This document shows positions 372 to 59,701 of a stretch of 64,000 bases of DNA, in pieces; within the stretch, counting starts at the first letter, position 1, and each line of letters opens with the position of its first letter. Location: positions 5,248,001 through 5,312,000 of the forward strand of contig CBDBGH010000003.1 of NCBI GenBank assembly GCA_965205265.1, in the 5' to 3' direction. The position numbers and the translations under genes were made by a program. The notes under the pieces were generated by a model, which was given only the letters and a program-made list of their open reading frames with translations, ran no database searches and was not told the DNA's origin. Source of the DNA: Alphaproteobacteria bacterium (GTDB lineage Bacteria > Pseudomonadota > Alphaproteobacteria > Bin95).

Positions 372-1340
372 TCAACGGAAGCGGTAGAAGGCGGCGACGC
401 TGCCCGTGACCGATTTCTCGGCTTCCTGGAGTTGGCCGGCGGCGCTCTCGAGCAGGTCCCACTCCCGGGCCATATGGGCGCGCGCGTCGTCCCGGCTGCG
501 GGATGGATCGAGCACCTCCGTGACCGGCCGCGAGGAAAAGACGATGCCGGCCTCCTGGAACCATGTCTTGAATGCCTCGCACCAGGCGGCCCCGTCCTGC
601 GGCGCGTCGGCCTCCACCAGCGCGAGAACGGCGTCGGCCAGGGTCCGGACGGCAGCGGGGATGTCGGCGGGCAGGTTGTTGAGCCGCTCCCGCTGCTCAT
701 AGGCCAGAGCCGGATGCGGGATCATGAGCAGGAGGACAGACAGAACCGCGCCGGCCTGCCGGTCGCGGAGCGTGTTGATCTGCCGCCGGGCCTCGTAGCG
801 CTCGGTGAGGGCGTCCGCGACCTGGCAGACGGCGTCGGCAGTGGCCTCGACCGCCGGCAGCCGATCGAGCGGCGCCGGTGTCGCGGCGGCGGCGAATTCG
901 CGCCAGACGGACAGCAGGGGCCGGGGCGCCGCAAGTCTCGGCTCGAGGAGGAAGCGCAGATCGCTGTCTAGGCGCAGGGGAAGGAAGTCGATGCCGTTGA
1001 GGGTTCCGAGAACGAGTTTCTTACACTCGTCGGTAATGGAGACGATGATGCGATTGATATCGCGCCAGCGCCGGTCAGCACGTCCCAAGGCAACGGTGCC
1101 GATGGGGCTGGTGAAAAGGTCCAGTGCGGCGCGGTCTTCCGATTCCAGGCGCGCCAGCAGCAAGGTGAGCGACGCCGTTTGCGTCGGATTCTTCGCGCGT
1201 TCCAGCAGGAACATTGCAGGCTGGGGAATCGGCGTTTCGTTCAGCCGGTTGACCGTTTCGTCTTCGAGGCTGCTGGCCCAGGCGGCGAGTTCCGCCCCGG
1301 CCAGGTCCGCGTTCGGATGGGGTATCCGGAGTGCTGCCAT
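372..1340 (-). CDS. Hypothetical alpha-helical protein, paralog of 1514-2545
   Basis: MAALRIPHP start with GAAGGA RBS; shares blocks (EARRQINTL/EVRRQLETL, GAAWCEAF/GMGWAEAF, C-terminal RFR) with neighbour. Confidence 0.7.
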   Translation of the reverse strand: MAALRIPHPNADLAGAELAAWASSLEDETVNRLNETPIPQPAMFLLERAKNPTQTASLTLLLARLESEDRAALDLFTSPIGTVALGRADRRWRDINRIIVSITDECKKLVLGTLNGIDFLPLRLDSDLRFLLEPRLAAPRPLLSVWREFAAAATPAPLDRLPAVEATADAVCQVADALTERYEARRQINTLRDRQAGAVLSVLLLMIPHPALAYEQRERLNNLPADIPAAVRTLADAVLALVEADAPQDGAAWCEAFKTWFQEAGIVFSSRPVTEVLDPSRSRDDARAHMAREWDLLESAAGQLQEAEKSVTGSVAAFYRFR

Positions 1341-1513
1341 TGATGATGATCCTTCCCTGCTTGTGCGGTGTTTCAGTCCGCCAGTCGATAACCCTGTGTC
1401 CCTTCGTGGGTCGCGGGATTCCACACCTAACATGCCGGGACAGGCGGCCGTCATGGGCCCGAACCAAATAGATGGGGAAAACCGGACTTCGCGCGCCGTT
1501 TTCCGGACCGGAC

Positions 1514-2545
1514 TCACCGGAACCGGAAACAGCGCCTGAACTGCGTTGCCGCCTCGTCGCCGAGTTCGCGTTCCAGGTCCGCGATCTGTTCGGCGACGAG
1601 GCCCGTCTCCGTCCGGCGCCCGGCCAGGAACTGTTGGGTTTCGGCCCTTGATTTGCGCGGGCGCGGGGCGACCGAGGACGACTTGTCGTAATGCGGGAAG
1701 TCGGTCCCATAATGCCAGAACCATGACTGGAATGCTTCGGCCCAGCCCATGCCGTCGGGCAAACACCCGGCGTCAAGAACCGCCAGAACGCCGTCGCGCA
1801 GACTGCGGGCTGCGGTCGGCAGGTCGGCCATGGCCTTGATGTGGCCATGTTGCGCGAGTCCTGTCTCGGGTTGGTTGATGACCGCGAGCAGGATGGAGGT
1901 ATCGAGACAGCCCCGCAGATGATACAGGGTCTCGAGCTGGCGGCGAACCTCATGTTCGGCTGTCAGCGCGTCAGCAAGACCGGCAAGACCGCTGGCGTGG
2001 CCACAGGGCTCCGGGATGCCGGATGCAAGGGTTCCCAGAGCGCCCGCGGCGGCGAATCCCGACCACAGGCCGTGAACCGGGCCGGGCGGGGCGGCGGGCG
2101 GCGCCCAGGCGCCCGCGACAGGCATGTCCCCCGAATGGGCCAGAACGGGAAGGCCCTTGCCATGGGCAAGGCCGAGCCCTTCCGTCCGCAGGCCGTAAAG
2201 AGTGAGGAGCGCAGCCTCGCGGCTGCACTTGGTGATCCTGTCCATGGCGGTGCCCACGGCGGCCCACACGGGGGAATCCTGGGAGGAAGCCAGAAGTGGC
2301 ATGAGGCGCGAGCTGCGCAGACAGGCCCTGTCCTCGGAGGTCAGCCGGGACATGAGCATGAGCAGACTCATGTCCGGTTCTGCCGCCTCTCTGGCAGTTT
2401 TGAACAAACGGCCGAGCGCTTCGTCCAGACCTTCGTGGTTTCCCAGCCGACGTGTTCGGACGTCGGCCTCAAGTGCCTCGATATAGGCGGCGAGATCGGC
2501 ACCGCTCGTGGCGGGTCCGGCCGGGGCAGCGGTGACTGCGGTCAC
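1514..2545 (-). CDS. Hypothetical protein, paralog of 372-1340, translationally coupled to recD2
   Basis: GTG start overlapping recD2 stop, AGGAGA RBS; shared motifs with neighbour. Confidence 0.75.
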   Translation of the reverse strand: MTAVTAAPAGPATSGADLAAYIEALEADVRTRRLGNHEGLDEALGRLFKTAREAAEPDMSLLMLMSRLTSEDRACLRSSRLMPLLASSQDSPVWAAVGTAMDRITKCSREAALLTLYGLRTEGLGLAHGKGLPVLAHSGDMPVAGAWAPPAAPPGPVHGLWSGFAAAGALGTLASGIPEPCGHASGLAGLADALTAEHEVRRQLETLYHLRGCLDTSILLAVINQPETGLAQHGHIKAMADLPTAARSLRDGVLAVLDAGCLPDGMGWAEAFQSWFWHYGTDFPHYDKSSSVAPRPRKSRAETQQFLAGRRTETGLVAEQIADLERELGDEAATQFRRCFRFR

Positions 2546-4797
2546 AGCGACGGTCTCCTTTCGGCGATCTGTTCCTCGAGAAGCTGCCGCAACCGGGTCC
2601 AGCGGCGGTTGGCCGAGGACGCGCGCACGGCCCGCGTGACGGCCCTCTCGTCGCCGACCAGGACGACATAGCGCTTGCCCCTGGTCACGGCGGTGTAGAG
2701 CAGGTTGCGCTGGAGCATCACGTAGTGCTGCATGGTCAGCGGAATGACGACAGCCGGGTATTCGGAGCCCTGGCTCTTGTGGATGGAAATGGCCCAGGCC
2801 GGAACGAGGGCGTCGAGTTCCTGGAAGGTGTAGGGGACGGCGCGCTCGCGGCCCTCGAAAAGGACGCCGAGGGTCTTGCGATCCGCATCGAGTTCGACGA
2901 CGAAGCCGATATCGCCGTTGAAGACCTTCCTGTTGTAGTCGTTCTCGATCTGCATGGCCTTGTCGGCCAGGGCCCAGCGCCAGCCGCCGCGCTCGATGAC
3001 GGACTCGTCGCGGGCCGGGTTGAGCAGCTTCTGCATCTGGATATTGAGGTTGCGGGTCCCGACTTTCGGGCGGTGCATGGGACAGATGACCTGGATATCC
3101 TCGGCGGCCCGCAGGCCGAACCGCCTGGGCAGGCGCTCGGAAACGATCTCAAGCGTGCGCTCGACGGTTATGGCCGCGGTTGCGGCCGGGACGAAGAAGA
3201 AGTCGGTCGGCACGTCCGGGCGCGACAGATCCGGGACCTCGCCGGAATTGATGAGATGGGCCGCATGGACGATGCGGCTGTTGCGCTCCTGCCGATGGAT
3301 ACGGCTCAGCCGCGAGACCGGCAGGGAGCCGGAGACGATGATGTCCCCGAGCACATGGCCGGGTCCGACCGAGGGCAGCTGGTCCACGTCGCCGACGATC
3401 AGCAGGGCGGCCCCGTCGCGCAGGGCCCGCAGAAGCGATTCCATCAGTTCGGCATCGACCATGCTGCACTCGTCGACGATAACCAGGTCGGCGGACAGCG
3501 GGTCGTCCTCGTTGCGCAGGAATTCGAACGTGGCCGGGGAGAATTCGAGCAGCCGGTGAATTGTCATCGCCTCGTGGCCGGTGGCCTCGGACATGCGCTT
3601 CGCCGCCCGTCCGGTCGGGGCGCACAGGGATATCGTGATTTCGCGGGGTCGGAGAATGTCCAGGACCGCCTTCAGGATCGTGGTCTTGCCGACGCCGGGC
3701 CCGCCTGTAATGACGAACAGCTTGTGGGTGAGCGCGCGCAGCACGGCGGCGCGCTGCTCGGTGTCGAAGCGCAGCCCGGAGCGCTGCTCGGCGGCGGAGA
3801 CCGCCGCATCCGGATCGGCGACCGACCAGGGCAGGGCGCCGGCGGAAAGGCGCCGGAGATCGTGGGCAATCCGGTTCTCGCAGGCGAAGAGAACCGGCGA
3901 AAACACGCAGTGGATCCCGGATATCCTGTCCAGGTGAAGGCGTTCCGCCGCAATCTCCTCGTCGAACACCGCGTTGATCGCGGCGGGCGACACCTCGAGC
4001 AGTTCCTTGGCGCGCTGCAGGAAAATGTCGAGGGGCAGTCCGCAATGCCCTTCGGAGCGGCTTTCGTGGAGAACATGGAAAAGCGCGGCCCGCAGGCGTT
4101 CGGGATTGTCCTTCGTGAATCCGGCGGCCAGCGCGATGGTATCGGAAGTGGCGAAGCCGATGCCGCGGATGTCGCGGGCCAGCCGGTAGGGGTCGGCCTG
4201 CATGACCTGCATCGCCCGGCTGCCATAGGCCCGGTAGATGCGGTAGGCCCGCGCCCCGCCGAGCCCATGGCCGTGCAGGAAGACCATGATGGTCCGGATG
4301 GTCCTGTCCTCGGCCCAGCTTTCGACGATGGCCCTGGCGCGGCCGGGGCCGATGCCGGCAACGTCCTGGAGGCGCCCGGGCTCGTTCTCGATGATGTCGA
4401 AAACCTGCTCGCCGAAAGCCTGTATGAGCCGACGCGCATAGACGGTGCCGATGCCGTTGACCATGCCGGAAGCGAGGTATTTCTCCATCGCCTCGAGCGA
4501 GCCGGGCGGGCCGACATGGATGAAATTCGCCTTGAGTTGCCGGCCGTGGGTCGGGTTGTGGACCCATTCGCCCTGATAGGAAATGCCGTCGCCTTCGTCG
4601 AGCGGCACTGAATGGCCCACGACCGTGATGAGGTTGTGCTCGTCGCTGTCCGGCCGGACGAGGAGAACGCAGAAGCCGGTTTCGACATTGTGGTAGATGA
4701 CCTTCCTGACAATGCCGGCGCCGGACAGCGGCACACCGTCCGCGGCGGAGGCGGGCCCCGGCGCGGACGGTGTGCCGATGGCGGCGTCAGCCTGCAT
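2542..4797 (-). CDS. recD2: ATP-dependent RecD2-like SF1B DNA helicase
   Basis: N-terminal OB/HhH region (GIGFATSD), Walker A TGGPGVGKT, DECSM, GDVDQLPSVGPG, AISIHKSQGSEY, LYTAVTRGK. Confidence 0.93.
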   Translation of the reverse strand: MQADAAIGTPSAPGPASAADGVPLSGAGIVRKVIYHNVETGFCVLLVRPDSDEHNLITVVGHSVPLDEGDGISYQGEWVHNPTHGRQLKANFIHVGPPGSLEAMEKYLASGMVNGIGTVYARRLIQAFGEQVFDIIENEPGRLQDVAGIGPGRARAIVESWAEDRTIRTIMVFLHGHGLGGARAYRIYRAYGSRAMQVMQADPYRLARDIRGIGFATSDTIALAAGFTKDNPERLRAALFHVLHESRSEGHCGLPLDIFLQRAKELLEVSPAAINAVFDEEIAAERLHLDRISGIHCVFSPVLFACENRIAHDLRRLSAGALPWSVADPDAAVSAAEQRSGLRFDTEQRAAVLRALTHKLFVITGGPGVGKTTILKAVLDILRPREITISLCAPTGRAAKRMSEATGHEAMTIHRLLEFSPATFEFLRNEDDPLSADLVIVDECSMVDAELMESLLRALRDGAALLIVGDVDQLPSVGPGHVLGDIIVSGSLPVSRLSRIHRQERNSRIVHAAHLINSGEVPDLSRPDVPTDFFFVPAATAAITVERTLEIVSERLPRRFGLRAAEDIQVICPMHRPKVGTRNLNIQMQKLLNPARDESVIERGGWRWALADKAMQIENDYNRKVFNGDIGFVVELDADRKTLGVLFEGRERAVPYTFQELDALVPAWAISIHKSQGSEYPAVVIPLTMQHYVMLQRNLLYTAVTRGKRYVVLVGDERAVTRAVRASSANRRWTRLRQLLEEQIAERRPSL

Positions 4798-10292: not shown

Positions 10293-10844
10293 TCATGGGG
10301 CCATGTCCGGGTTCTGTCCTTCGCGGCTTCCTTCCCAGGCTTCGCGCCGCTCGACGGCCGCAATCAGTCTTGCCCCCGAGCGTGCGAGTTCCGGGCTCGA
10401 GAACCCTTCCAGCGGCGGCGGGTCGAGGGACTCGGGCGGCACCGGGTCGGGAGTCGGCGGTGCGGGTTCGGAAGGCGGCAGCAGGGTGTAGTTGTGGCTG
10501 GCGATGGAAACGTCGGTGATGGCCTCGCGTCCGAGATGGCGGTTTACCGCCTCCACTATCACTGGCCGGATGTGCACCAATTCCGTCGCGAAGCTGGAGT
10601 GGGCGCCTATCCGGAGCACACCGCGGCTGATCTTCATCGGGTACGAAACCCGGCTGTACTTCCTGCCGACCACCGCTTCCCAGTGCATCAGAAGGCGCAT
10701 GTCCTGGATGCCCATCTGCTGTCCGGTCCGCCGGATTTCGTCCTGGACGATGTCCCCCATTCTCACGGGTTGGCCATCGGCTTTGACAGATCTGCGGCGG
10801 CGCGGCATTCGCGTTCTATAGAGGAATCCCGTCCCGTTTTCCAT
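10293..10844 (-). CDS. dciA: DciA/DUF721 family helicase-loader-like protein (start uncertain)
   Basis: LLMHWEAVVG...PMKISRGVLRI...FATEL....PVIVEAVNRHLGREAITDV matches DUF721 pattern. Confidence 0.75.
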   Translation of the reverse strand: MENGTGFLYRTRMPRRRRSVKADGQPVRMGDIVQDEIRRTGQQMGIQDMRLLMHWEAVVGRKYSRVSYPMKISRGVLRIGAHSSFATELVHIRPVIVEAVNRHLGREAITDVSIASHNYTLLPPSEPAPPTPDPVPPESLDPPPLEGFSSPELARSGARLIAAVERREAWEGSREGQNPDMAP

Positions 10845-11607
10845 ATGGTCCCTACGGACGGGGAAGGGAGAGGCAGGCGGGAAATGTCTCCGGGCTCGAA
10901 TTTCACCAGTCCTCCGGCATAGACGCGGCCGTCATCGAGCGTGACGGTGCTGTTGAGCCAGTCGATGATCCCCGTGATTTCATCCGTGGCCAGCGGGGCG
11001 CGGGGATAGAGCCCGTGCGCGATGTTCAGGTGGACCGCCCCGGCCTCGTTGCGGACGAAGACCGGAGCCCGGCGGGCCATGTAGGAACAGAGAATCGGGG
11101 CAGGTGGACGCAGGCGCACGCGCCACCATGGGCGGCGGTGGGCCGCTGTCCAGGAACGATGCGCTCCGCGTTCCCTAGCATATTGGAGAAAGCGGTCCAC
11201 CGCCCGGCGCCTGTCCGGGTCGAGGCAGTCGAGGTCCTCGGGCAGTACGATGAGCCTGTCGAGCGGGGTTTGCGGCCGGATCACCCCCTCGGGCGCTTCG
11301 AAGAGCTGACGGGCATGGGTGACGGCCGGCACCAGGAGGTCCGGAGGCAGGTCGGCGGTTCGGTCGCCGGCGATCCAGATGCGGTTGCCGCCCGTCACGA
11401 CGCCGCGATGAACACGGAAGAGCGTTCCGAGTTCGACAGGGTTGCGGCGCCTTCCGGAAGACGGGCGCCCGAGGCCTGTCCATTTCGGACTTTCGACAAA
11501 CCGCTTCAGTGCTACCGGTCGGCCGCCGCGAAGCATGCCGGGTCCGGACAGCCGACGAATGCGGTGAAGCCGCGGAAAGGGGCTGGCCTGCCCCGCGCGA
11601 AAGCAGA

Positions 11608-12944
11608 GGGGCTTACAAAGGTAAGTTGACATTGCCGTGTATCGTATCCAGTTCGGCCGCATGAGCGAGGTCTTCACGCACCGTCAGGTGGTATTCCGGC
11701 TTCTGCCGGGCCGCCGGTCCGTTTGGCGGCGTCTGGAGCGGGTTCTGGAGGCGCAGCGGCAGTTGTACAACGCCGCCCTTCAGGAACGCTGCGACGCCTG
11801 GCGTCTGGCCGGGCGGTCGCTCTCCTATATCGACCAGGCGAAGAGCCTGACGGTGTGCCGCCGGGAGGACCCCGAGATGGCGGCCGTTCCGGTCGCCGTG
11901 CAGCGCGGGACGCTGAAGCGCCTGGACGAGGCGATGAAGGGCTTCTTCCGGCGGGTGAAGGCGGGCCAGAAGCCGGGTTTTCCCCGGTTCCGGTCCCGCC
12001 GGCGGTTCGACAGCCTCTCCTTCGTCTCGGGGGTGAGGCTGGAGGACCGGGCCCGGCCCGGCGCGGACTGCGGGTCCGGCGCGGCCTGCCTGCGCCTTCC
12101 GGGTTTCGGCCCGCTTGCGGTCCGCCGGCGGGGCGGCAACCCGCATGGGGATGGCGAGCCGGTCTCGGCGGTGCTGAAGCGCGAGGCCGGCAAGTGGTAC
12201 GCCGTGGTCTGCTACCGGGTCCCGGCGCCGGCGGTCCACGAGGATGACGACAGCGTCATCGGGGTGGACATGAACGCTGGCCAGGTGGCGGCGAGCGGTC
12301 CGGGGCCGGAAGCCCGCCTGTTCCATGCCCCGGATACGCGGCGGCTGGAGGCGAGGGCGAAGCGCCTTGCCCGGCGTCTGGCGCGCCAGAAGCGCGGCTC
12401 CGGGCGCCGGGAGCGCACCCGCGCCCGTCTGGCGAAGACGAGGCGGCGCCTTTCCGGGATGCGGTGCGACTGGCGCCACCATGTCTCGCGGACAGTCGCC
12501 GACGCCGCCCATACCGTCGCCGTCGAGGACCTCCGGGTCCGGAACATGACGCGCAGCGCCCGGGGCACGACAGAGGAGCCGGGCGCCCGGGTCCGGCAGA
12601 AGGCCGGGCTCAACCGCGTCATCCTGGCCACGGGATGGGCGGAACTGCGCTTCATGTTCGGCTACAAGGCGGGACGGCTGCTCGCGGTCGACCCGGCCCA
12701 TACCAGCCGGACCTGCGCCGCCTGCGGCCATGTCGATGCCGGCTCGCGGCGTTCGCGGGCCGAATTCCAGTGCACGGCCTGCGGCCATGCGGACCATGCC
12801 GACGCGAATGCCGGCAGCAACATCCGGCGTCGGGGACTGGCGCTGCTGCACGGGGAGGGGCGTTCCGGCTTGCGGACCCCTGCGATCCGTGAAAACGCAG
12901 GGATGCTGGCGGCATGACGCCGTCAACTCATCTTTGTAAGGCCC
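11608..12944 (+). mobile_element. Non-autonomous TIR element carrying tnpB, copy 1
   Basis: TIRs GGGGCTTACAAAGGTAAGTTGAC / GTCAACTCATCTTTGTAAGGCCC; 8-bp TSD AAAGCAGA; 1337 bp. Confidence 0.95.
11661..12917 (+). CDS. tnpB: RNA-guided endonuclease TnpB (IS200/IS605 OrfB family)
   Basis: RuvC I GVDMN, RuvC II VAVEDL, Zn ribbon CAAC...CTAC, RuvC III HADANA; KPGFPRF. Confidence 0.93.
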   Translation: MSEVFTHRQVVFRLLPGRRSVWRRLERVLEAQRQLYNAALQERCDAWRLAGRSLSYIDQAKSLTVCRREDPEMAAVPVAVQRGTLKRLDEAMKGFFRRVKAGQKPGFPRFRSRRRFDSLSFVSGVRLEDRARPGADCGSGAACLRLPGFGPLAVRRRGGNPHGDGEPVSAVLKREAGKWYAVVCYRVPAPAVHEDDDSVIGVDMNAGQVAASGPGPEARLFHAPDTRRLEARAKRLARRLARQKRGSGRRERTRARLAKTRRRLSGMRCDWRHHVSRTVADAAHTVAVEDLRVRNMTRSARGTTEEPGARVRQKAGLNRVILATGWAELRFMFGYKAGRLLAVDPAHTSRTCAACGHVDAGSRRSRAEFQCTACGHADHADANAGSNIRRRGLALLHGEGRSGLRTPAIRENAGMLAA

Positions 12945-13845
12945 AAAGCAGACTATCGCCGCGCTGGCCTGGATGCCCGGGAAGATATCGGCGGCCGGGT
13001 CGATGACATGCAGGGAGGAAAGCCCCAGGGGACCCGCGGTGAAGAGGGTCCGCAGCACCGCCCCATAACCGGTATGGAGCCATTCCGCGGGCAGCAGCAT
13101 CGCGCCGTAGTCGCCGGGCCGGGCGAGTCCGCATATCGCAAGCATGAAATGGACGTAGAGCCCGGAAAGGCGGCTGAAGGGCAAACGCAGGTCGGCCGCC
13201 CGTGCCGCGGCAAGGTCTTTCCGGCCGCGGTCTATATCGTGGTGCCTCACCCATGGCGGGTTGCCGATAAACAGGGTCGGGCCCGGGGCGGGGCCCGGGT
13301 CGGCGGCGAGAAAGTCCCGGGTCTCCAGCCGGAGCCGGTCGCAGAGGCCGTTCAAGCGCGCGTTGGCGCGAAGCAGCCGGGCGCTGTTTCTGTCGGTCTC
13401 GAACGCGACAAGTTCGGCCGCCGGAAAGCGCTTGGCGGCGGCGAGACCGAACCGGCCCGTTCCGGCGCCCGGATCGACAATGCGCCGCGGCGATCCTGTG
13501 CGGGCGGCCCAATCCGTCATCGCGTCGACGATGGCGGACGGGGTCAGCACGGCGCCGGCGGTGCGGCGCTCGGCAGGACTGCGAAGGCGCATGAGCATTT
13601 CGCCCAGAGGGTCGCCGCCATCGGCAATCCGCCGGCGCAGGGCGGCGATGGCGGGGTCCGGACAGGGCCGACCGTCGTCGAGCGAACGGGCCAGCGCAAC
13701 CAGCGACTGCATGGAGGTCGGGGTTTGTAATGCCATGCCCGGACTGTCGCCGGGACACCTGAAAACTCAAAAAGCGGTCCGCGCTGTGCGGCACGGGGTC
13801 CGGGGCTTCGTTACCGGATCCCTGGACAGCGCCCGGCTGTTACTC

Positions 13846-17883: not shown

Positions 17884-18828
17884 ATGAGCGCCTTCATCTG
17901 CAACGAGACGCATATCGCGACCTGCGCGGAGATCGTCCGGACCCTGGGGCCGGCCGAGGTCCGGGAGATGGAACGCGGCGACATCGCAGCCGTCCTCGCC
18001 CTGGAGAACATGAAGAGCGTCGCCTTCCGCTATGGCCCGGAAGGTCAGGAGATCTACGACAGAATGATGGCTCCGATGATCGGGCAGGGCTTCACGGTGC
18101 TCAGGGGCGGGCCCGCCGAAGAGGATCCGCTGTCGGAAATGCTGCCGGGCGGGCAGACGGGGCGGGAATATGCCGCGTCCTGCCGTCTTGCCCGGCCGAT
18201 CGTCGAATACAGCCCGGCCGAAGCCCATGCCTGGCTGTCCTGTCTCGAGTACCAGAGCTGCGAGCATCCAGGGTGGGAGGGCTGCGAGGCGCGCGCCTGG
18301 ATCCATGCCGTCCAGCATGGTCTTGCCCTCCGGATCAGGGACGGGCTGCTGGGTGGGCGGGAGGTCCGGGATATCGGGGGAAAGCCGCTGCATCATGGAC
18401 AGGTCGTGCTGTGCAGGGAGGTGCATATGGCGACCTGTGCATCGATCCTGGAGCATTGCGGCCTGTATGTCCTGATGGACCGGTCGTATGGGGATATCCT
18501 GGAAGGGCTCGTCGAGGCGAACCTCAATGCGCTCGAGGCCGAAGGGATGGGCATGGCGCAGAGCAACCGTCGCAGGCATCGCATGAGGTGCCGCGTGGCC
18601 GGGCCGGTCGATACCAGCCCGCTGGAGGCCCATGCCCTTTTGAGCTGCGTGCGCGACAATTGCCGAGCGGATCCCGGGCCGGAGCAGACCCCGGTCGCGG
18701 AGTGGCTGGATGACGGGTTGCTTTCGATAGCCAAGGAGATGAGGCGGGAGGCGCTTGGCGGGCGGCATGTCTGGGAGGCGCCGGAACTGCTTGACTCGCC
18801 CGATGCCGGAGAGGCACCCTCGCCGTAG
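17884..18828 (+). CDS. Paralog of 16949-17833
   Basis: Identical SAFICNETHIATCA N-terminus; LEYQSCEHPGW. Confidence 0.75.
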   Translation: MSAFICNETHIATCAEIVRTLGPAEVREMERGDIAAVLALENMKSVAFRYGPEGQEIYDRMMAPMIGQGFTVLRGGPAEEDPLSEMLPGGQTGREYAASCRLARPIVEYSPAEAHAWLSCLEYQSCEHPGWEGCEARAWIHAVQHGLALRIRDGLLGGREVRDIGGKPLHHGQVVLCREVHMATCASILEHCGLYVLMDRSYGDILEGLVEANLNALEAEGMGMAQSNRRRHRMRCRVAGPVDTSPLEAHALLSCVRDNCRADPGPEQTPVAEWLDDGLLSIAKEMRREALGGRHVWEAPELLDSPDAGEAPSP

Positions 18829-18832
18829 CCGC

Positions 18833-19351
18833 ATGGATGGTTTCCACAGCCTTTTCCCGGACGAGCCGGCCGCGCGCGCCTGGTTCGAGGACGGCCGCTG
18901 GCCGCACGGGCGGTTCTGTCCGCAATGCGGTTCGGCGCGCACCCGGCCGGTGCCGAACGAGCGGCCGGCCCCCTATCACTGCACGTCCTGCCGCACCTAT
19001 TTTTCAGTGCGTTGGGGGACCATGCTGCACAGAAGCAACCTGCCGTTGCGCAAATGGGCGATGGCGATTCATCTCATGTCCGCAAGTACAGGGCGCAACG
19101 GGGTTCCCGGTTGTGTCGCGATGGGCCGCTGTCTCGACATCAATCCGCGCTCCGCGGACATGGCCGTGAACAAGATAAGGCGGGCGGTCGCGGAGCAGAT
19201 CGGTTCGGGCGGGGGAAACCCGGATGGCCTCATAGACGCGGACGTCGAGGACATACGCGACGCCCTTCTGGGCATCGTCCCGCACGGGAGGGAGGCCCAG
19301 CTCCCGGAGGATTGGGAGGACCTGGATGTCCTATTGCAGGAGTCCCTCTAG
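18833..19351 (+). CDS. IS1595-transposase-derived zinc-ribbon/HTH protein lacking the DDE domain
   Basis: FPDEPAARAWFE..RWP...CPQCGS...YHCTSCRTYFSVR.GT..H.SNLPLRKW. Confidence 0.75.
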   Translation: MDGFHSLFPDEPAARAWFEDGRWPHGRFCPQCGSARTRPVPNERPAPYHCTSCRTYFSVRWGTMLHRSNLPLRKWAMAIHLMSASTGRNGVPGCVAMGRCLDINPRSADMAVNKIRRAVAEQIGSGGGNPDGLIDADVEDIRDALLGIVPHGREAQLPEDWEDLDVLLQESL

Positions 19352-36351: not shown

Positions 36352-37688
36352 GGGGCTTACAAAGGTAAGTTGACATTGCCGTGTATCGTATCCAGTTCGG
36401 CCGCATGAGCGAGGTCTTCACGCACCGTCAGGTGGTATTCCGGCTTCTGCCGGGCCGCCGGTCCGTTTGGCGGCGTCTGGAGCGGGTTCTGGAGGCGCAG
36501 CGGCAGTTGTACAACGCCGCCCTTCAGGAACGCTGCGACGCCTGGCATCTGGCCGGGCGGTCGCTCTCCTATATCGACCAGGCGAAGAGCCTGACGGTGT
36601 GCCGCCGGGAGGACCCCGAGATGGCGGCCGTTCCGGTCGCCGTGCAGCGCGGGACGCTGAAGCGCCTGGACGAGGCGATGAAGGGCTTCTTCCGGCGGGT
36701 GAAGGCGGGCCAGAAGCCGGGTTTTCCCCGGTTCCGGTCCCGCCGGCGGTTCGACAGCCTCTCCTTCGTCTCGGGGGTGAGGCTGGAGGACCGGGCCCGG
36801 CCCGGCGCGGACTGCGGGTCCGGCGCGGCCTGCCTGCGCCTTCCGGGTTTCGGCCCGCTTGCGGTCCGCCAGCGGGGCGGCAACCCGCATGGGGATGGCG
36901 AGCCGGTCTCGGCGGTGCTGAAGCGCGAGGCCGGCAAGTGGTACGCCGTGGTCTGCTACCGGGTCCCGGCGCCGGCGGTCCACGAGGATGACGACAGCGT
37001 CATCGGGGTGGACATGAACGCTGGCCAGGTGGCGGCGAGCGGTCCGGGGCCGGAAGCCCGCCTGTTCCATGCCCCGGATACGCGGCGGCTGGAGGCGAGG
37101 GCGAAGCGCCTTGCCCGGCGTCTGGCGCGCCAGAAGCGCGGCTCCGGGCGCCGGGAGCGCACCCGCGCCCGTCTGGCGAAGACGAGGCGGCGCCTTTCCG
37201 GGATGCGGTGCGACTGGCGCCACCATGTCTCGCGGACAGTCGCCGACGCCGCCCATACCGTCGCCGTCGAGGACCTCCGGGTCCGGAACATGACGCGCAG
37301 CGCCCGGGGCACGACAGAGGAGCCGGGCGCCCGGGTCCGGCAGAAGGCCGGGCTCAACCGCGTCATCCTGGCCACGGGATGGGCGGAACTGCGCTTCATG
37401 TTCGGCTACAAGGCGGGACGGCTGCTCGCGGTCGACCCGGCCCATACCAGCCGGACCTGCGCCGCCTGCGGCCATGTCGATGCCGGCTCGCGGCGTTCGC
37501 GGGCCGAATTCCAGTGCACGGCCTGCGGCCATGCGGACCATGCCGACGCGAATGCCGGCAGCAACATCCGGCGTCGGGGACTGGCGCTGCTGCACGGGGA
37601 GGGGCGTTCCGGCTTGCGGACCCCTGCGATCCGTGAAAACGCAGGGATGCTGGCGGCATGACGCCGTCAACTCATCTTTGTAAGGCCC
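36352..37688 (+). mobile_element. Non-autonomous TIR element carrying tnpB, copy 2
   Basis: Same TIRs; 8-bp TSD TTCTACGA; two amino-acid differences from copies 1 and 3. Confidence 0.95.
36405..37661 (+). CDS. tnpB: TnpB endonuclease
   Basis: As copy 1, with R>H and R>Q substitutions. Confidence 0.93.
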   Translation: MSEVFTHRQVVFRLLPGRRSVWRRLERVLEAQRQLYNAALQERCDAWHLAGRSLSYIDQAKSLTVCRREDPEMAAVPVAVQRGTLKRLDEAMKGFFRRVKAGQKPGFPRFRSRRRFDSLSFVSGVRLEDRARPGADCGSGAACLRLPGFGPLAVRQRGGNPHGDGEPVSAVLKREAGKWYAVVCYRVPAPAVHEDDDSVIGVDMNAGQVAASGPGPEARLFHAPDTRRLEARAKRLARRLARQKRGSGRRERTRARLAKTRRRLSGMRCDWRHHVSRTVADAAHTVAVEDLRVRNMTRSARGTTEEPGARVRQKAGLNRVILATGWAELRFMFGYKAGRLLAVDPAHTSRTCAACGHVDAGSRRSRAEFQCTACGHADHADANAGSNIRRRGLALLHGEGRSGLRTPAIRENAGMLAA

Positions 37689-37726
37689 TTCTACGATGAC
37701 CGTGAGGCTGGCGTGGCGGGTATGGC

Positions 37727-58351: not shown

Positions 58352-59688
58352 GGGGCTTACAAAGGTAAGTTGACATTGCCGTGTATCGTATCCAGTTCGG
58401 CCGCATGAGCGAGGTCTTCACGCACCGTCAGGTGGTATTCCGGCTTCTGCCGGGCCGCCGGTCCGTTTGGCGGCGTCTGGAGCGGGTTCTGGAGGCGCAG
58501 CGGCAGTTGTACAACGCCGCCCTTCAGGAACGCTGCGACGCCTGGCGTCTGGCCGGGCGGTCGCTCTCCTATATCGACCAGGCGAAGAGCCTGACGGTGT
58601 GCCGCCGGGAGGACCCCGAGATGGCGGCCGTTCCGGTCGCCGTGCAGCGCGGGACGCTGAAGCGCCTGGACGAGGCGATGAAGGGCTTCTTCCGGCGGGT
58701 GAAGGCGGGCCAGAAGCCGGGTTTTCCCCGGTTCCGGTCCCGCCGGCGGTTCGACAGCCTCTCCTTCGTCTCGGGGGTGAGGCTGGAGGACCGGGCCCGG
58801 CCCGGCGCGGACTGCGGGTCCGGCGCGGCCTGCCTGCGCCTTCCGGGTTTCGGCCCGCTTGCGGTCCGCCGGCGGGGCGGCAACCCGCATGGGGATGGCG
58901 AGCCGGTCTCGGCGGTGCTGAAGCGCGAGGCCGGCAAGTGGTACGCCGTGGTCTGCTACCGGGTCCCGGCGCCGGCGGTCCACGAGGATGACGACAGCGT
59001 CATCGGGGTGGACATGAACGCTGGCCAGGTGGCGGCGAGCGGTCCGGGGCCGGAAGCCCGCCTGTTCCATGCCCCGGATACGCGGCGGCTGGAGGCGAGG
59101 GCGAAGCGCCTTGCCCGGCGTCTGGCGCGCCAGAAGCGCGGCTCCGGGCGCCGGGAGCGCACCCGCGCCCGTCTGGCGAAGACGAGGCGGCGCCTTTCCG
59201 GGATGCGGTGCGACTGGCGCCACCATGTCTCGCGGACAGTCGCCGACGCCGCCCATACCGTCGCCGTCGAGGACCTCCGGGTCCGGAACATGACGCGCAG
59301 CGCCCGGGGCACGACAGAGGAGCCGGGCGCCCGGGTCCGGCAGAAGGCCGGGCTCAACCGCGTCATCCTGGCCACGGGATGGGCGGAACTGCGCTTCATG
59401 TTCGGCTACAAGGCGGGACGGCTGCTCGCGGTCGACCCGGCCCATACCAGCCGGACCTGCGCCGCCTGCGGCCATGTCGATGCCGGCTCGCGGCGTTCGC
59501 GGGCCGAATTCCAGTGCACGGCCTGCGGCCATGCGGACCATGCCGACGCGAATGCCGGCAGCAACATCCGGCGTCGGGGACTGGCGCTGCTGCACGGGGA
59601 GGGGCGTTCCGGCTTGCGGACCCCTGCGATCCGTGAAAACGCAGGGATGCTGGCGGCATGACGCCGTCAACTCATCTTTGTAAGGCCC
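58352..59688 (+). mobile_element. Non-autonomous TIR element carrying tnpB, copy 3
   Basis: Same TIRs; 8-bp TSD AAAGGAAA. Confidence 0.95.
58405..59661 (+). CDS. tnpB: TnpB endonuclease
   Basis: Protein identical to copy 1. Confidence 0.93.
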   Translation: MSEVFTHRQVVFRLLPGRRSVWRRLERVLEAQRQLYNAALQERCDAWRLAGRSLSYIDQAKSLTVCRREDPEMAAVPVAVQRGTLKRLDEAMKGFFRRVKAGQKPGFPRFRSRRRFDSLSFVSGVRLEDRARPGADCGSGAACLRLPGFGPLAVRRRGGNPHGDGEPVSAVLKREAGKWYAVVCYRVPAPAVHEDDDSVIGVDMNAGQVAASGPGPEARLFHAPDTRRLEARAKRLARRLARQKRGSGRRERTRARLAKTRRRLSGMRCDWRHHVSRTVADAAHTVAVEDLRVRNMTRSARGTTEEPGARVRQKAGLNRVILATGWAELRFMFGYKAGRLLAVDPAHTSRTCAACGHVDAGSRRSRAEFQCTACGHADHADANAGSNIRRRGLALLHGEGRSGLRTPAIRENAGMLAA

Positions 59689-59701
59689 AAAGGAAACCAT
59701 C

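Follow-up and report, generated by a model that had tools for sequence, protein, structure and literature searches.

A tnpB-carrying IS1595-type element whose right terminal inverted repeat is predicted to form part of a TnpB guide-RNA scaffold

The DNA analyzed here (the window: 64,000 nucleotides of an Alphaproteobacteria bacterium, assembly GCA_965205265.1, contig CBDBGH010000003.1, positions 5,248,001 to 5,312,000 of the forward strand) carries at 11608-12944 a 1337-bp element in which tnpB is the sole gene with a family match in an open reading frame (ORF) and Pfam scan. The element is bounded by 23-nt terminal inverted repeats (TIRs) and 8-bp target-site duplications (TSDs), and the 3′ end of its tnpB gene, together with the right TIR, can be folded into helices that covary across homologues. 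An earlier note, made from the letters alone, had proposed a putative omegaRNA over the tnpB 3′ end and the right TIR, with two options for its guide. The stems, TIRs, TTGAC and GTCAA motifs and terminal 18-mer on which that proposal was built all lie at the positions given there, and 27 nt separate the stop codon from the element end. The gene, the repeats and the duplications are located as follows, with two further copies of the element in the window.

11600-11607, no strand assigned: left copy of the TSD, 8 bp, AAAGCAGA, the same as 12945-12952
11608-11630, plus strand: left TIR, 23 nt, IS1595-type GGGG...TTGAC; located by repeat finder, copy boundaries coincide exactly
11637-12917, plus strand: tnpB ORF, 426 aa, GTG start at 11637, TGA stop at 12915-12917
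12922-12944, plus strand: right TIR, 23 nt, of which 13 bases are paired in hairpin P2 (described below)
12945-12952, no strand assigned: right copy of the TSD, 8 bp, AAAGCAGA, predicted to supply the first 8 nt of the guide
36352-37688, plus strand: second copy of the element, TSD TTCTACGA, RNA-model match at 37588-37697
58352-59688, plus strand: third copy of the element, TSD AAAGGAAA, RNA-model match at 59588-59697

The two TIR arms are 87% complementary according to the repeat finder, and the octamer AAAGCAGA, a direct repeat absent from the earlier note, directly adjoins both of them. The genome contains seven full copies of the element and one 518-bp fragment, with limits of similarity that are exactly the TIR ends. 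Five of the full copies are identical, and the remaining two carry one and two base differences, respectively. Perfect 8-bp TSDs flank six of the seven (AAAGCAGA, AAAGGAAA, AAAGTTGT, AAACGTTC, TTCGAGGT, and TTCTACGA), the sole full copy without a TSD being L005. The last 200 nt of the element have no additional copies in the genome. In the four DNA runs examined, contigs end at the element ends and sequencing depth over the element is many-fold above that of the flanks, and an empty site (a joint across the element) was not seen in these runs. Copy L005 (C3:4855744-4857080), which shows a one-base difference in its first TIR base pattern, lies 5.7 kb from L008 (C3:4849555-4850072), the only truncated copy, which retains the left part of the element; the arrangement looks like a rearrangement between two copies.

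We searched the genome for the TIRs, allowing up to 5 mismatches, and found 12 elements (192-248 bp) resembling miniature inverted-repeat transposable elements (MITEs) and a single element of 2840 bp. The latter (C3:1919671-1922510; positions 1001-3840 of locus L009) has 23-nt TIRs with perfect arms, matching the arms of the tnpB element at 19/23 and 20/23 bases, and its own 8-bp TSD, TCATGTTT. It encodes a protein with a DDE_Tnp_IS1595 domain (1.3e-41) and a Zn_ribbon_IS1595 domain. It also has a passenger ORF of 277 aa with a signal-peptide-like start and a weak match to TbpB_B_D (E 2.6e-04, below cut-off). The MITE-like elements (for example, C3:42319-42552 and C3:4278783-4278974) share the TIR type of the tnpB element, and nine have a perfect 8-bp TSD, one a TSD at 7/8 and two none. 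Four of the MITEs, as well as the IS1595 element, have the octamer TCATGTTT or its complement AAACATGA as their TSD, which suggests that the target is preferred or repeated.

Members of the IS1595 family as a rule have an 8-bp TSD. Because the TIRs match the arms of the 2840-bp IS1595 DDE element, the TSD is 8 bp long and the element has no transposase of its own, we conclude from its sequence that it is a non-autonomous IS1595-type element with tnpB as cargo. It thus shares TIRs and TSD length with the IS1595 family and lacks a DDE transposase with N-terminal zinc ribbon; a tblastn search with the IS1595 transposase found no match inside any tnpB locus. Elements of the IS1341 group of IS200/IS605, in contrast, have neither TIRs nor TSD, possess subterminal hairpin ends and insert 3′ of a 4-5-nt motif. 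The present element does not fit that group, having 23-nt TIRs and an 8-bp TSD in six of seven copies and at 28 related sites (described below). Presumably it is moved in trans by an IS1595 DDE transposase. IS1595 transposases are present in its own genome, and IS1595 DDE domains were found in all five of the other host genomes tested, where a generic terminal motif was common to eight of 14 IS1595 loci inspected. Since TIR matches were found only in its own genome, that is also the only genome in which a matching transposase partner was seen. A partial IS1595-like transposase match also lies in the window at about 18800-19309 on the plus strand (C3:5266800-5267309; tblastn, 36% identity over 175 aa, E 1e-26). 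Among the other genomes, G016 (loci L121-L126) carries an unrelated IS1595-subgroup element of ~1026 bp with TIR CCTGCTTATCC... and 8-bp TSDs, and has ~20 DDE matches.

The product of tnpB matches OrfB_IS605 (PF01385, 6.7e-14) and Cas12f1-like_TNB (PF07282, 9.6e-14), both above cut-offs, and the ISDra2 TnpB structure 8h1j with E 3e-25 over residues 15-402. Since alignments with homologues begin only at residue ~8-15, translation may really start at ATG 11661. Of the RuvC triad, D211 and E297 do not vary among 27 homologues and D389 is conserved to at least 90%; the protein is predicted to be catalytically intact. Among 8000 scored candidates, 1354 protein relatives were found at E ≤1e-20, and we took 80 relative loci from one-genome-per-species contigs. 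Their hosts are all bacterial, represented by isolates or metagenome-assembled genomes (MAGs), and include Thalassobaculaceae, Paracoccaceae, Boseongicola, Rhodothermales, and one gammaproteobacterial MAG. One sub-clade (L032-L039, L087, and L092) has an insertion of ~36 nt in tnpB between the RuvC-III NI motif and hairpin P0 (alignment A3 columns 134-170), which looks self-complementary in L087 and L092.

To characterize the 3′ end of the element, we aligned 33 non-redundant divergent right ends with MAFFT (alignment A2) and evaluated covariation with RNAalifold and by counting pairs on a specified structure. The structure consists of the following parts.

12827-12843, plus strand: hairpin P0, GCGTC (12827-31) with GGCGC (12839-43), loop GGGGACT (12832-38)
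12849-12891, plus strand: hairpin P1 in the tnpB tail, in three parts (three nested helices), by covariation count
12849-53 with 12887-91, plus strand: outer helix of P1, CACGG with CCGTG, 100% paired, 2 of 4 pairs changed on both sides
12856-60 with 12877-81, plus strand: middle helix of P1, AGGGG with CCCCT, 78% paired
12864-67 with 12873-76, plus strand: inner helix of P1, TCCG with CGGA, 100% paired, 4 of 4 pairs changed on both sides (e.g., CG:18, GC:15)
12897-12937, plus strand: long hairpin P2, outer helix 12897-12905/12929-12937, inner helix 12907-13/12919-25
12938-12944, plus strand: unpaired TIR tip AAGGCCC, the last segment of the putative scaffold ahead of the flank
12945-12964, plus strand: predicted guide segment, TSD plus flank, ~16-20 nt, by analogy with TnpB and Fanzor architecture

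In P2, GATG-TGGCGGC at 12902-13 pairs with GCCGTCA-CATC at 12919-32, so that the loop, ATGAC, contains the stop codon and the 3′ arm consists of TIR bases. The outer helix, which joins the upstream arm to the middle of the TIR, is paired in 89% of cases, and all five of its pairs are changed on both sides among the homologues. P0 contributes one covarying pair (GC:23, CG:8, 2 broken; RNAalifold, alignment A3). Over the whole structure, 91.1% of cells are paired, compared with 74.1% in shuffled alignments (0/500 as high) and 26-46% when the partners are slid, and the covariation score is 0.44 versus 0.148 in shuffles. A covariance-model-fitted alignment of 73 matches gives the same picture, although such an alignment leans towards the structure by construction. 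Because MAFFT cannot align the variable inner stem of P2, two alignment-free checks were added. From CCGTG to the end of the element, the minimum-free-energy fold forms a single long hairpin reaching into the TIR in 32 of the 33 sequences (in L052, only the inner stem forms), with a median of 9 unpaired nt at the 3′ end. When upstream arms were swapped onto the TIRs of other clusters, mean duplex energy rose from -11.5 kcal/mol for native arm/TIR pairs to -6.4, and with ten representatives of TIR clusters the values were -13.0 and -7.5 kcal/mol, with 0/10000 permutations as low as the native combination. A conserved covarying structure of RNA type, overlapping the tnpB 3′ end and using TIR bases, is thus present, as the earlier note had supposed, and the absence of covariation that would have told against it was not what we observed. 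When 87 sources were searched with the covariance model, the motif turned up at the tnpB 3′ end in 62, and each of the three copies in the window has it; the other 25 sources are truncated loci or the most distant TnpBs.

Several features argue for an RNA of the tnpB sense strand rather than a constraint on DNA or protein. G-U pairs account for 79 of 454 pairs, and in 27 of 33 sequences the fold of the plus strand is better than that of its complement. In three loci from Boseongicola/Paracoccaceae (L034, L037, and L038), the ORF stops at CCG-TGA within the conserved CCGTGAAA, ~45 nt before the usual stop, which leaves P2 wholly non-coding, and P2 is still kept. The covariation in P1 falls within a protein segment of variable residues. 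From these observations we infer that the structure is formed in RNA.

The TIR tip that follows P2 reads AAGGCCC in the window and AUAAKUCCC in most relatives, with non-conserved flank directly after it. It is complementary to the loop of P0, as GGGACU/AGUCCC, as GGGCCU/AGGCCC in L029 and as GGGAUC/GAUUCCC in L035. Ranked for pairing with the tip among ~220 upstream windows, the P0 loop comes first or second in 26 of 32 sequences. The mean for native loop/tip duplexes is -7.12, compared with -6.23 after permutation (0/5000), and 19 unique combinations give p = 0.0002. Support is mixed, in that the complementarity requires two registers and has the exceptions given below. We regard the P0 loop/TIR tip interaction as a candidate pseudoknot. 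In ISXfa1, a pseudoknot that joins a remote loop to the scaffold bases just ahead of the guide was tested by mutation, with U-130A rescued by A-3U (PMC10711439, in the portion that deals with that element).

The insertion sites were compared as well. A strict scan for TIRs with a duplication yielded 28 distinct sites with a TSD match of at least 7/8 (21 perfect, seven at 7/8), all with ends of the type GGGR.TTA...TAA.YCCC. One position outside the element stands out.

11599, plus strand: G immediately 5′ of the left TSD, candidate position of a target-adjacent motif (TAM) in the empty site, G in 26 of 28 sites

In the orientation of tnpB, G occurs at this position far more often than expected from the flank G frequency of 0.34 (binomial p 9e-11), whereas the mirror position after the right TSD is C in seven of 28 (Fisher p 3e-7), and positions -2 to -6 show no preference. 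Within the TSD, positions 2-3 and 6-7 are A/T in 24-28 of the 28 sites. In the tnpB-less IS1595-type element of G016 the preference is symmetric, A preceding and T following the TSD in 6/6 copies examined, and the MITEs of the window's own genome, taken as they lie on the plus strand, have G before the TSD in 5/10 and C after it in 2/10. Because the G of the empty site sits where a TAM would sit relative to a guide that begins with the duplication, we consider it a candidate for a one-base TAM or for a mark that separates self from non-self. The G could also be an insertion bias of the transposase, and the near-identity of the seven copies, which leaves little time for selective loss, favors a bias that is set at insertion. 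A bolder and rather improbable possibility is that the one-sided G couples TnpB and its RNA to the landing sites of a DDE element, such that insertions are steered to, or survive only at, flanks offering a usable TAM and protospacer, and each new copy gains a guide against its own empty site. If true, RNA-guided homing with a one-base TAM would be built into a bacterial cut-and-paste transposon.

Conservation across homologues stops at 12944, and we consider it most likely, by analogy with known TnpB and Fanzor guide RNAs, that the scaffold ends there and that the guide consists of the duplication plus flank. This is the second option of the earlier note, in which the scaffold includes the TIR; its accompanying relaxed TAM is replaced by what looks like a minimal one, a G. 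The first option had the scaffold end at GTCAA and the constant 18-mer of the TIR (12927-44) serve as guide, so that TnpB would be aimed at its own or related transposon ends and might cut at the element boundary. TnpB cuts distal to its TAM, which would put the cut near that boundary, and within the family 14-19 nt, a guide's length, lie between the inner hairpin and the end of the element. The covariation is difficult to accommodate, however: 12929-12937 is the 3′ arm of the P2 outer helix and is held there by compensatory change (5/5 pairs and the swap test), while GTCAA (12922-26) lies within the hairpin and not at its end. The proposed seed would therefore be locked in a conserved intramolecular helix, which is hard to reconcile with target pairing. 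Moreover, each copy would become a target, since its own DNA would carry the same 'TAM' and protospacer; three positions, two of them in the seed, distinguish the left TIR from the 18-mer; and the 8-bp TSDs and the IS1595 link account for mobility without such a mechanism. The motifs that had suggested it also have another source, since TTGAC (11626-30), taken to be TAM-like, and GTCAA, likened to IS605 right ends, both belong to a TIR consensus shared with the IS1595 element and tnpB-less MITEs. We judge a guide made of the TIR 18-mer to be very improbable. A different placement would keep the same scaffold and let the guide begin only after the 8-bp TSD, with the TSD counted as scaffold, the right flank as target and the TAM inside the TSD. 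A precedent is provided by the SfAV Fanzor1 reRNA, which according to PMC10711439 runs ~15 nt past the TSD, with the TSD drawn within the scaffold, and the A/T preference at TSD positions 2-3 and 6-7 makes a weak A/T-rich TAM inside the TSD conceivable. Yet an 8-nt duplication that is different at every site is ill-suited to a structural scaffold, a TAM inside it would adjoin the guide match in the occupied locus and self would not be spared, and the G before the TSD would go unexplained. We find this placement unlikely.

The hairpins may also have nothing to do with a guide: P2 could be a terminator, an mRNA-stabilizing hairpin or a DNA end feature read by the transposase, and P1 could reflect coding or regulatory constraint. 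The inner stem of P2 (12907-12925), followed by ACTCATCTTT, was flagged as terminator-like, and termination there would leave no guide. In the homologues, however, the full stem is followed by UAUAAKUCCC and not by a U-tract. A DNA end feature is suggested by weak matches to the motif (18-36 bits), inverted and partial, at the left end of the element in nine sources (L069, L077, L048, L066, L074, L040, L065, L106, and L030), the TIRs of which are in effect ~75-90 nt long. In L069, for example, the left-end copy (2291-2389, minus strand) holds GACCCGUGAAAU, P2, and the TIR, with P1 truncated. Such copies fit a DNA-level end feature as well as they fit a relic, and the left end might conceivably encode a second guide RNA that reads outwards. 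Most left ends, in contrast, carry no such motif (that of the window is the 23-nt TIR only), and neither the MITEs nor the IS1595 transposase element, with the same TIR type, have such a hairpin by eye. The G-U pairs and strand asymmetry point to an RNA of the sense strand, P1 covaries where protein residues vary, and the layout of hairpins, 3′ single strand and loop-tip pseudoknot matches that of TnpB reRNAs as far as these are depicted in PMC10711439. Taken together, these considerations make an explanation without a guide RNA improbable in our view. We also considered the MITEs as stand-alone guide RNAs and rejected this idea, as their interiors contain no sequence resembling CCGTGAAA, P1 or P2 by eye. 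Likewise rejected was TTGAC of the left TIR as a -35 box for tnpB, for which no fitting -10 was seen by eye; no sigma-70 promoter for the RNA was found in 11500-13050.

We therefore return to a guide formed by the duplication and flank. In the mechanism that we propose, an IS1595 DDE transposase acting in trans would mobilize the element, which has tnpB as its only gene, and the last ~118 nt of the element (12827-12944) would encode a TnpB guide-RNA scaffold (omegaRNA/reRNA) composed of P0, P1, and P2. The 3′ arm of P2 would be the inner two-thirds of the right TIR, and the unpaired tip would then pair with the P0 loop to form a pseudoknot in most relatives. Transcription continuing into the flank would add a guide made of the 8-bp duplication and the next ~8-12 nt, with the unoccupied site as its match. 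Immediately 5′ of that match, an empty site has G and an occupied site has the final base of the TIR, C, and this difference could separate target from self. The pay-off would be that empty sites are cut and that repair restores the element.

Not all of the data favor this mechanism. The sequence of the window on its own does not fold unusually well (z = -0.72, with 45/200 shuffles folding at least as well), so that support beyond chance for the fold comes from the homologues and not from the single sequence. An Rfam scan of 11000-13600 with E up to 10 gave four weak matches below gathering score, none of them at the 3′ end. The middle helix of P1 is less consistently paired than the others, and both the terminator-like call and the left-end copies described above must be counted here. 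The predicted pseudoknot is weak in the window copy itself (-4.7 kcal/mol, with 101/227 windows pairing better), which is one of the six exceptions, and among near relatives three one-sided changes (L001, L028, and L036) break a pseudoknot pair. None of 20 IS1595 loci fetched from five other genomes contains a 23-mer that comes within 6 mismatches of the TIR of the resident tnpB element. We know of no precedent for a one-base TAM, and the G may instead be an insertion bias of the transposase. Weighing these points, we hold it to be probable, though well short of certain, that a non-autonomous IS1595 element uses its tnpB 3′ end and right TIR as a guide-RNA scaffold, with the duplication and flank as guide.

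The copy at 11608-12944 interrupts a minus-strand gene, the two parts of which lie at 10766-11607 and 12953-13736 of the window. The N-terminal part of the split gene has matches to methyltransferase families, among them Eco57I-type and N6 DNA methylases (E 2e-06 to 1e-03), and the C-terminal 280 aa match no Pfam family.

The presence of TnpB in mobile elements is usually explained through IS605/IS607, where scarless excision recreates TAM and target and the site is re-cut by the nuclease. The elements described here raise the question of how an RNA-guided nuclease could benefit a DDE element that makes variable 8-bp duplications, and the asymmetric G offers a handle on it. They would represent a large bacterial TnpB clade riding in IS1595-type TIR elements, in which the transposase recognition sequence doubles, along the inner two-thirds of the TIR, as part of a guide-RNA hairpin, a bacterial counterpart of the Fanzor arrangement. 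One could thereby study how a transposase site and an RNA scaffold jointly constrain the bases that they share, and compact TnpBs with a minimal TAM would be of interest to genome-editing work.

Among known systems, ISDra2 TnpB (IS200/IS605; PDB 8h1j, 8bf8/8exa) is homologous to the present protein over the region given above, and the RuvC D-E-D residues and zinc finger are kept here. As in ISDra2, a structured RNA module overlaps the tnpB 3′ end and adjoins the right end of the element, and a pseudoknot from a loop to the 3′ end is plausible. Unlike ISDra2, the element has no subterminal IS605-type ends and no Y1 TnpA but 23-nt TIRs and an 8-bp TSD; the right end that would feed the scaffold is a DDE-type TIR, and in place of a 4-5-nt TAM equal to a TnpA target motif there is only the G before the duplication. 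From IS1595 insertion sequences (with ISXO2-like DDE transposase) and their MITEs, with which it shares the TIR type GGGR.TTA...TTGAC and the 8-bp TSD, the element differs in having tnpB as cargo and no transposase gene inside, and in the one-sided G, which was not seen in the tnpB-less G016 element.

Prokaryotic TnpBs associated with DDE transposases have been described as branches DDE-1 to DDE-6, with inverted terminal repeats and the tnpB 3′ end within 250 bp of the element end, along with solo TnpBs whose flanking ends resemble those of elements that carry a transposase (Altae-Tran et al. 2023, PMC10691335, main text). The present TnpB is likewise bounded by inverted ends, and its clade may already be one of these branches. 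The main text of that paper names IS630 and contains no occurrence of 'IS1595', and in its text on the DDE branches RNA structure, TIR use in the scaffold and flank asymmetry were not found. A 2026 review (PMC13565253) names, in the part on such associations, ISL2, IS630, and IS1031 and calls DDE-TnpB associations rare in prokaryotes. In a literature search for TnpB with IS1595, ISXO2, IS1016, Merlin, ISPna2, or ISH4, partly judged by title and the start of the abstract and covering the main text of PMC10691335, no reported association was found. As far as we have checked, the IS1595-type carrier, the covariation evidence that in a bacterial TnpB the terminal scaffold hairpin takes its 3′ arm from the TIR, and the one-sided G are new.

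A parallel in architecture is found in the Fanzors. Yoon et al. (2023, PMC10711439), in their account of Fanzor1 and Fanzor2* reRNAs, place both TIR and TSD within the scaffold of Fanzor1. The non-canonical programming mode anticipated in the earlier note is favored as regards a TIR in the scaffold but would not be wholly new, as Fanzor reRNAs already include TIR and TSD. Like the Fanzor1/Fanzor2* elements portrayed there, the present element is a non-autonomous TIR/TSD transposon with the nuclease gene as sole cargo, a TIR in the predicted scaffold and a guide that would come from the flank. It differs from them in its bacterial host and typical TnpB of ~420 aa, where Fanzors have eukaryotic or eukaryotic-virus hosts and an enlarged protein, in its IS1595-type carrier with a long, variable 8-bp TSD that is hardly usable as scaffold, and in its pseudoknot-like complementarity, a feature reported as absent in Fanzor1 in the same account. 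The element would work like a Fanzor in its use of the TIR, and it is not a member of that family.

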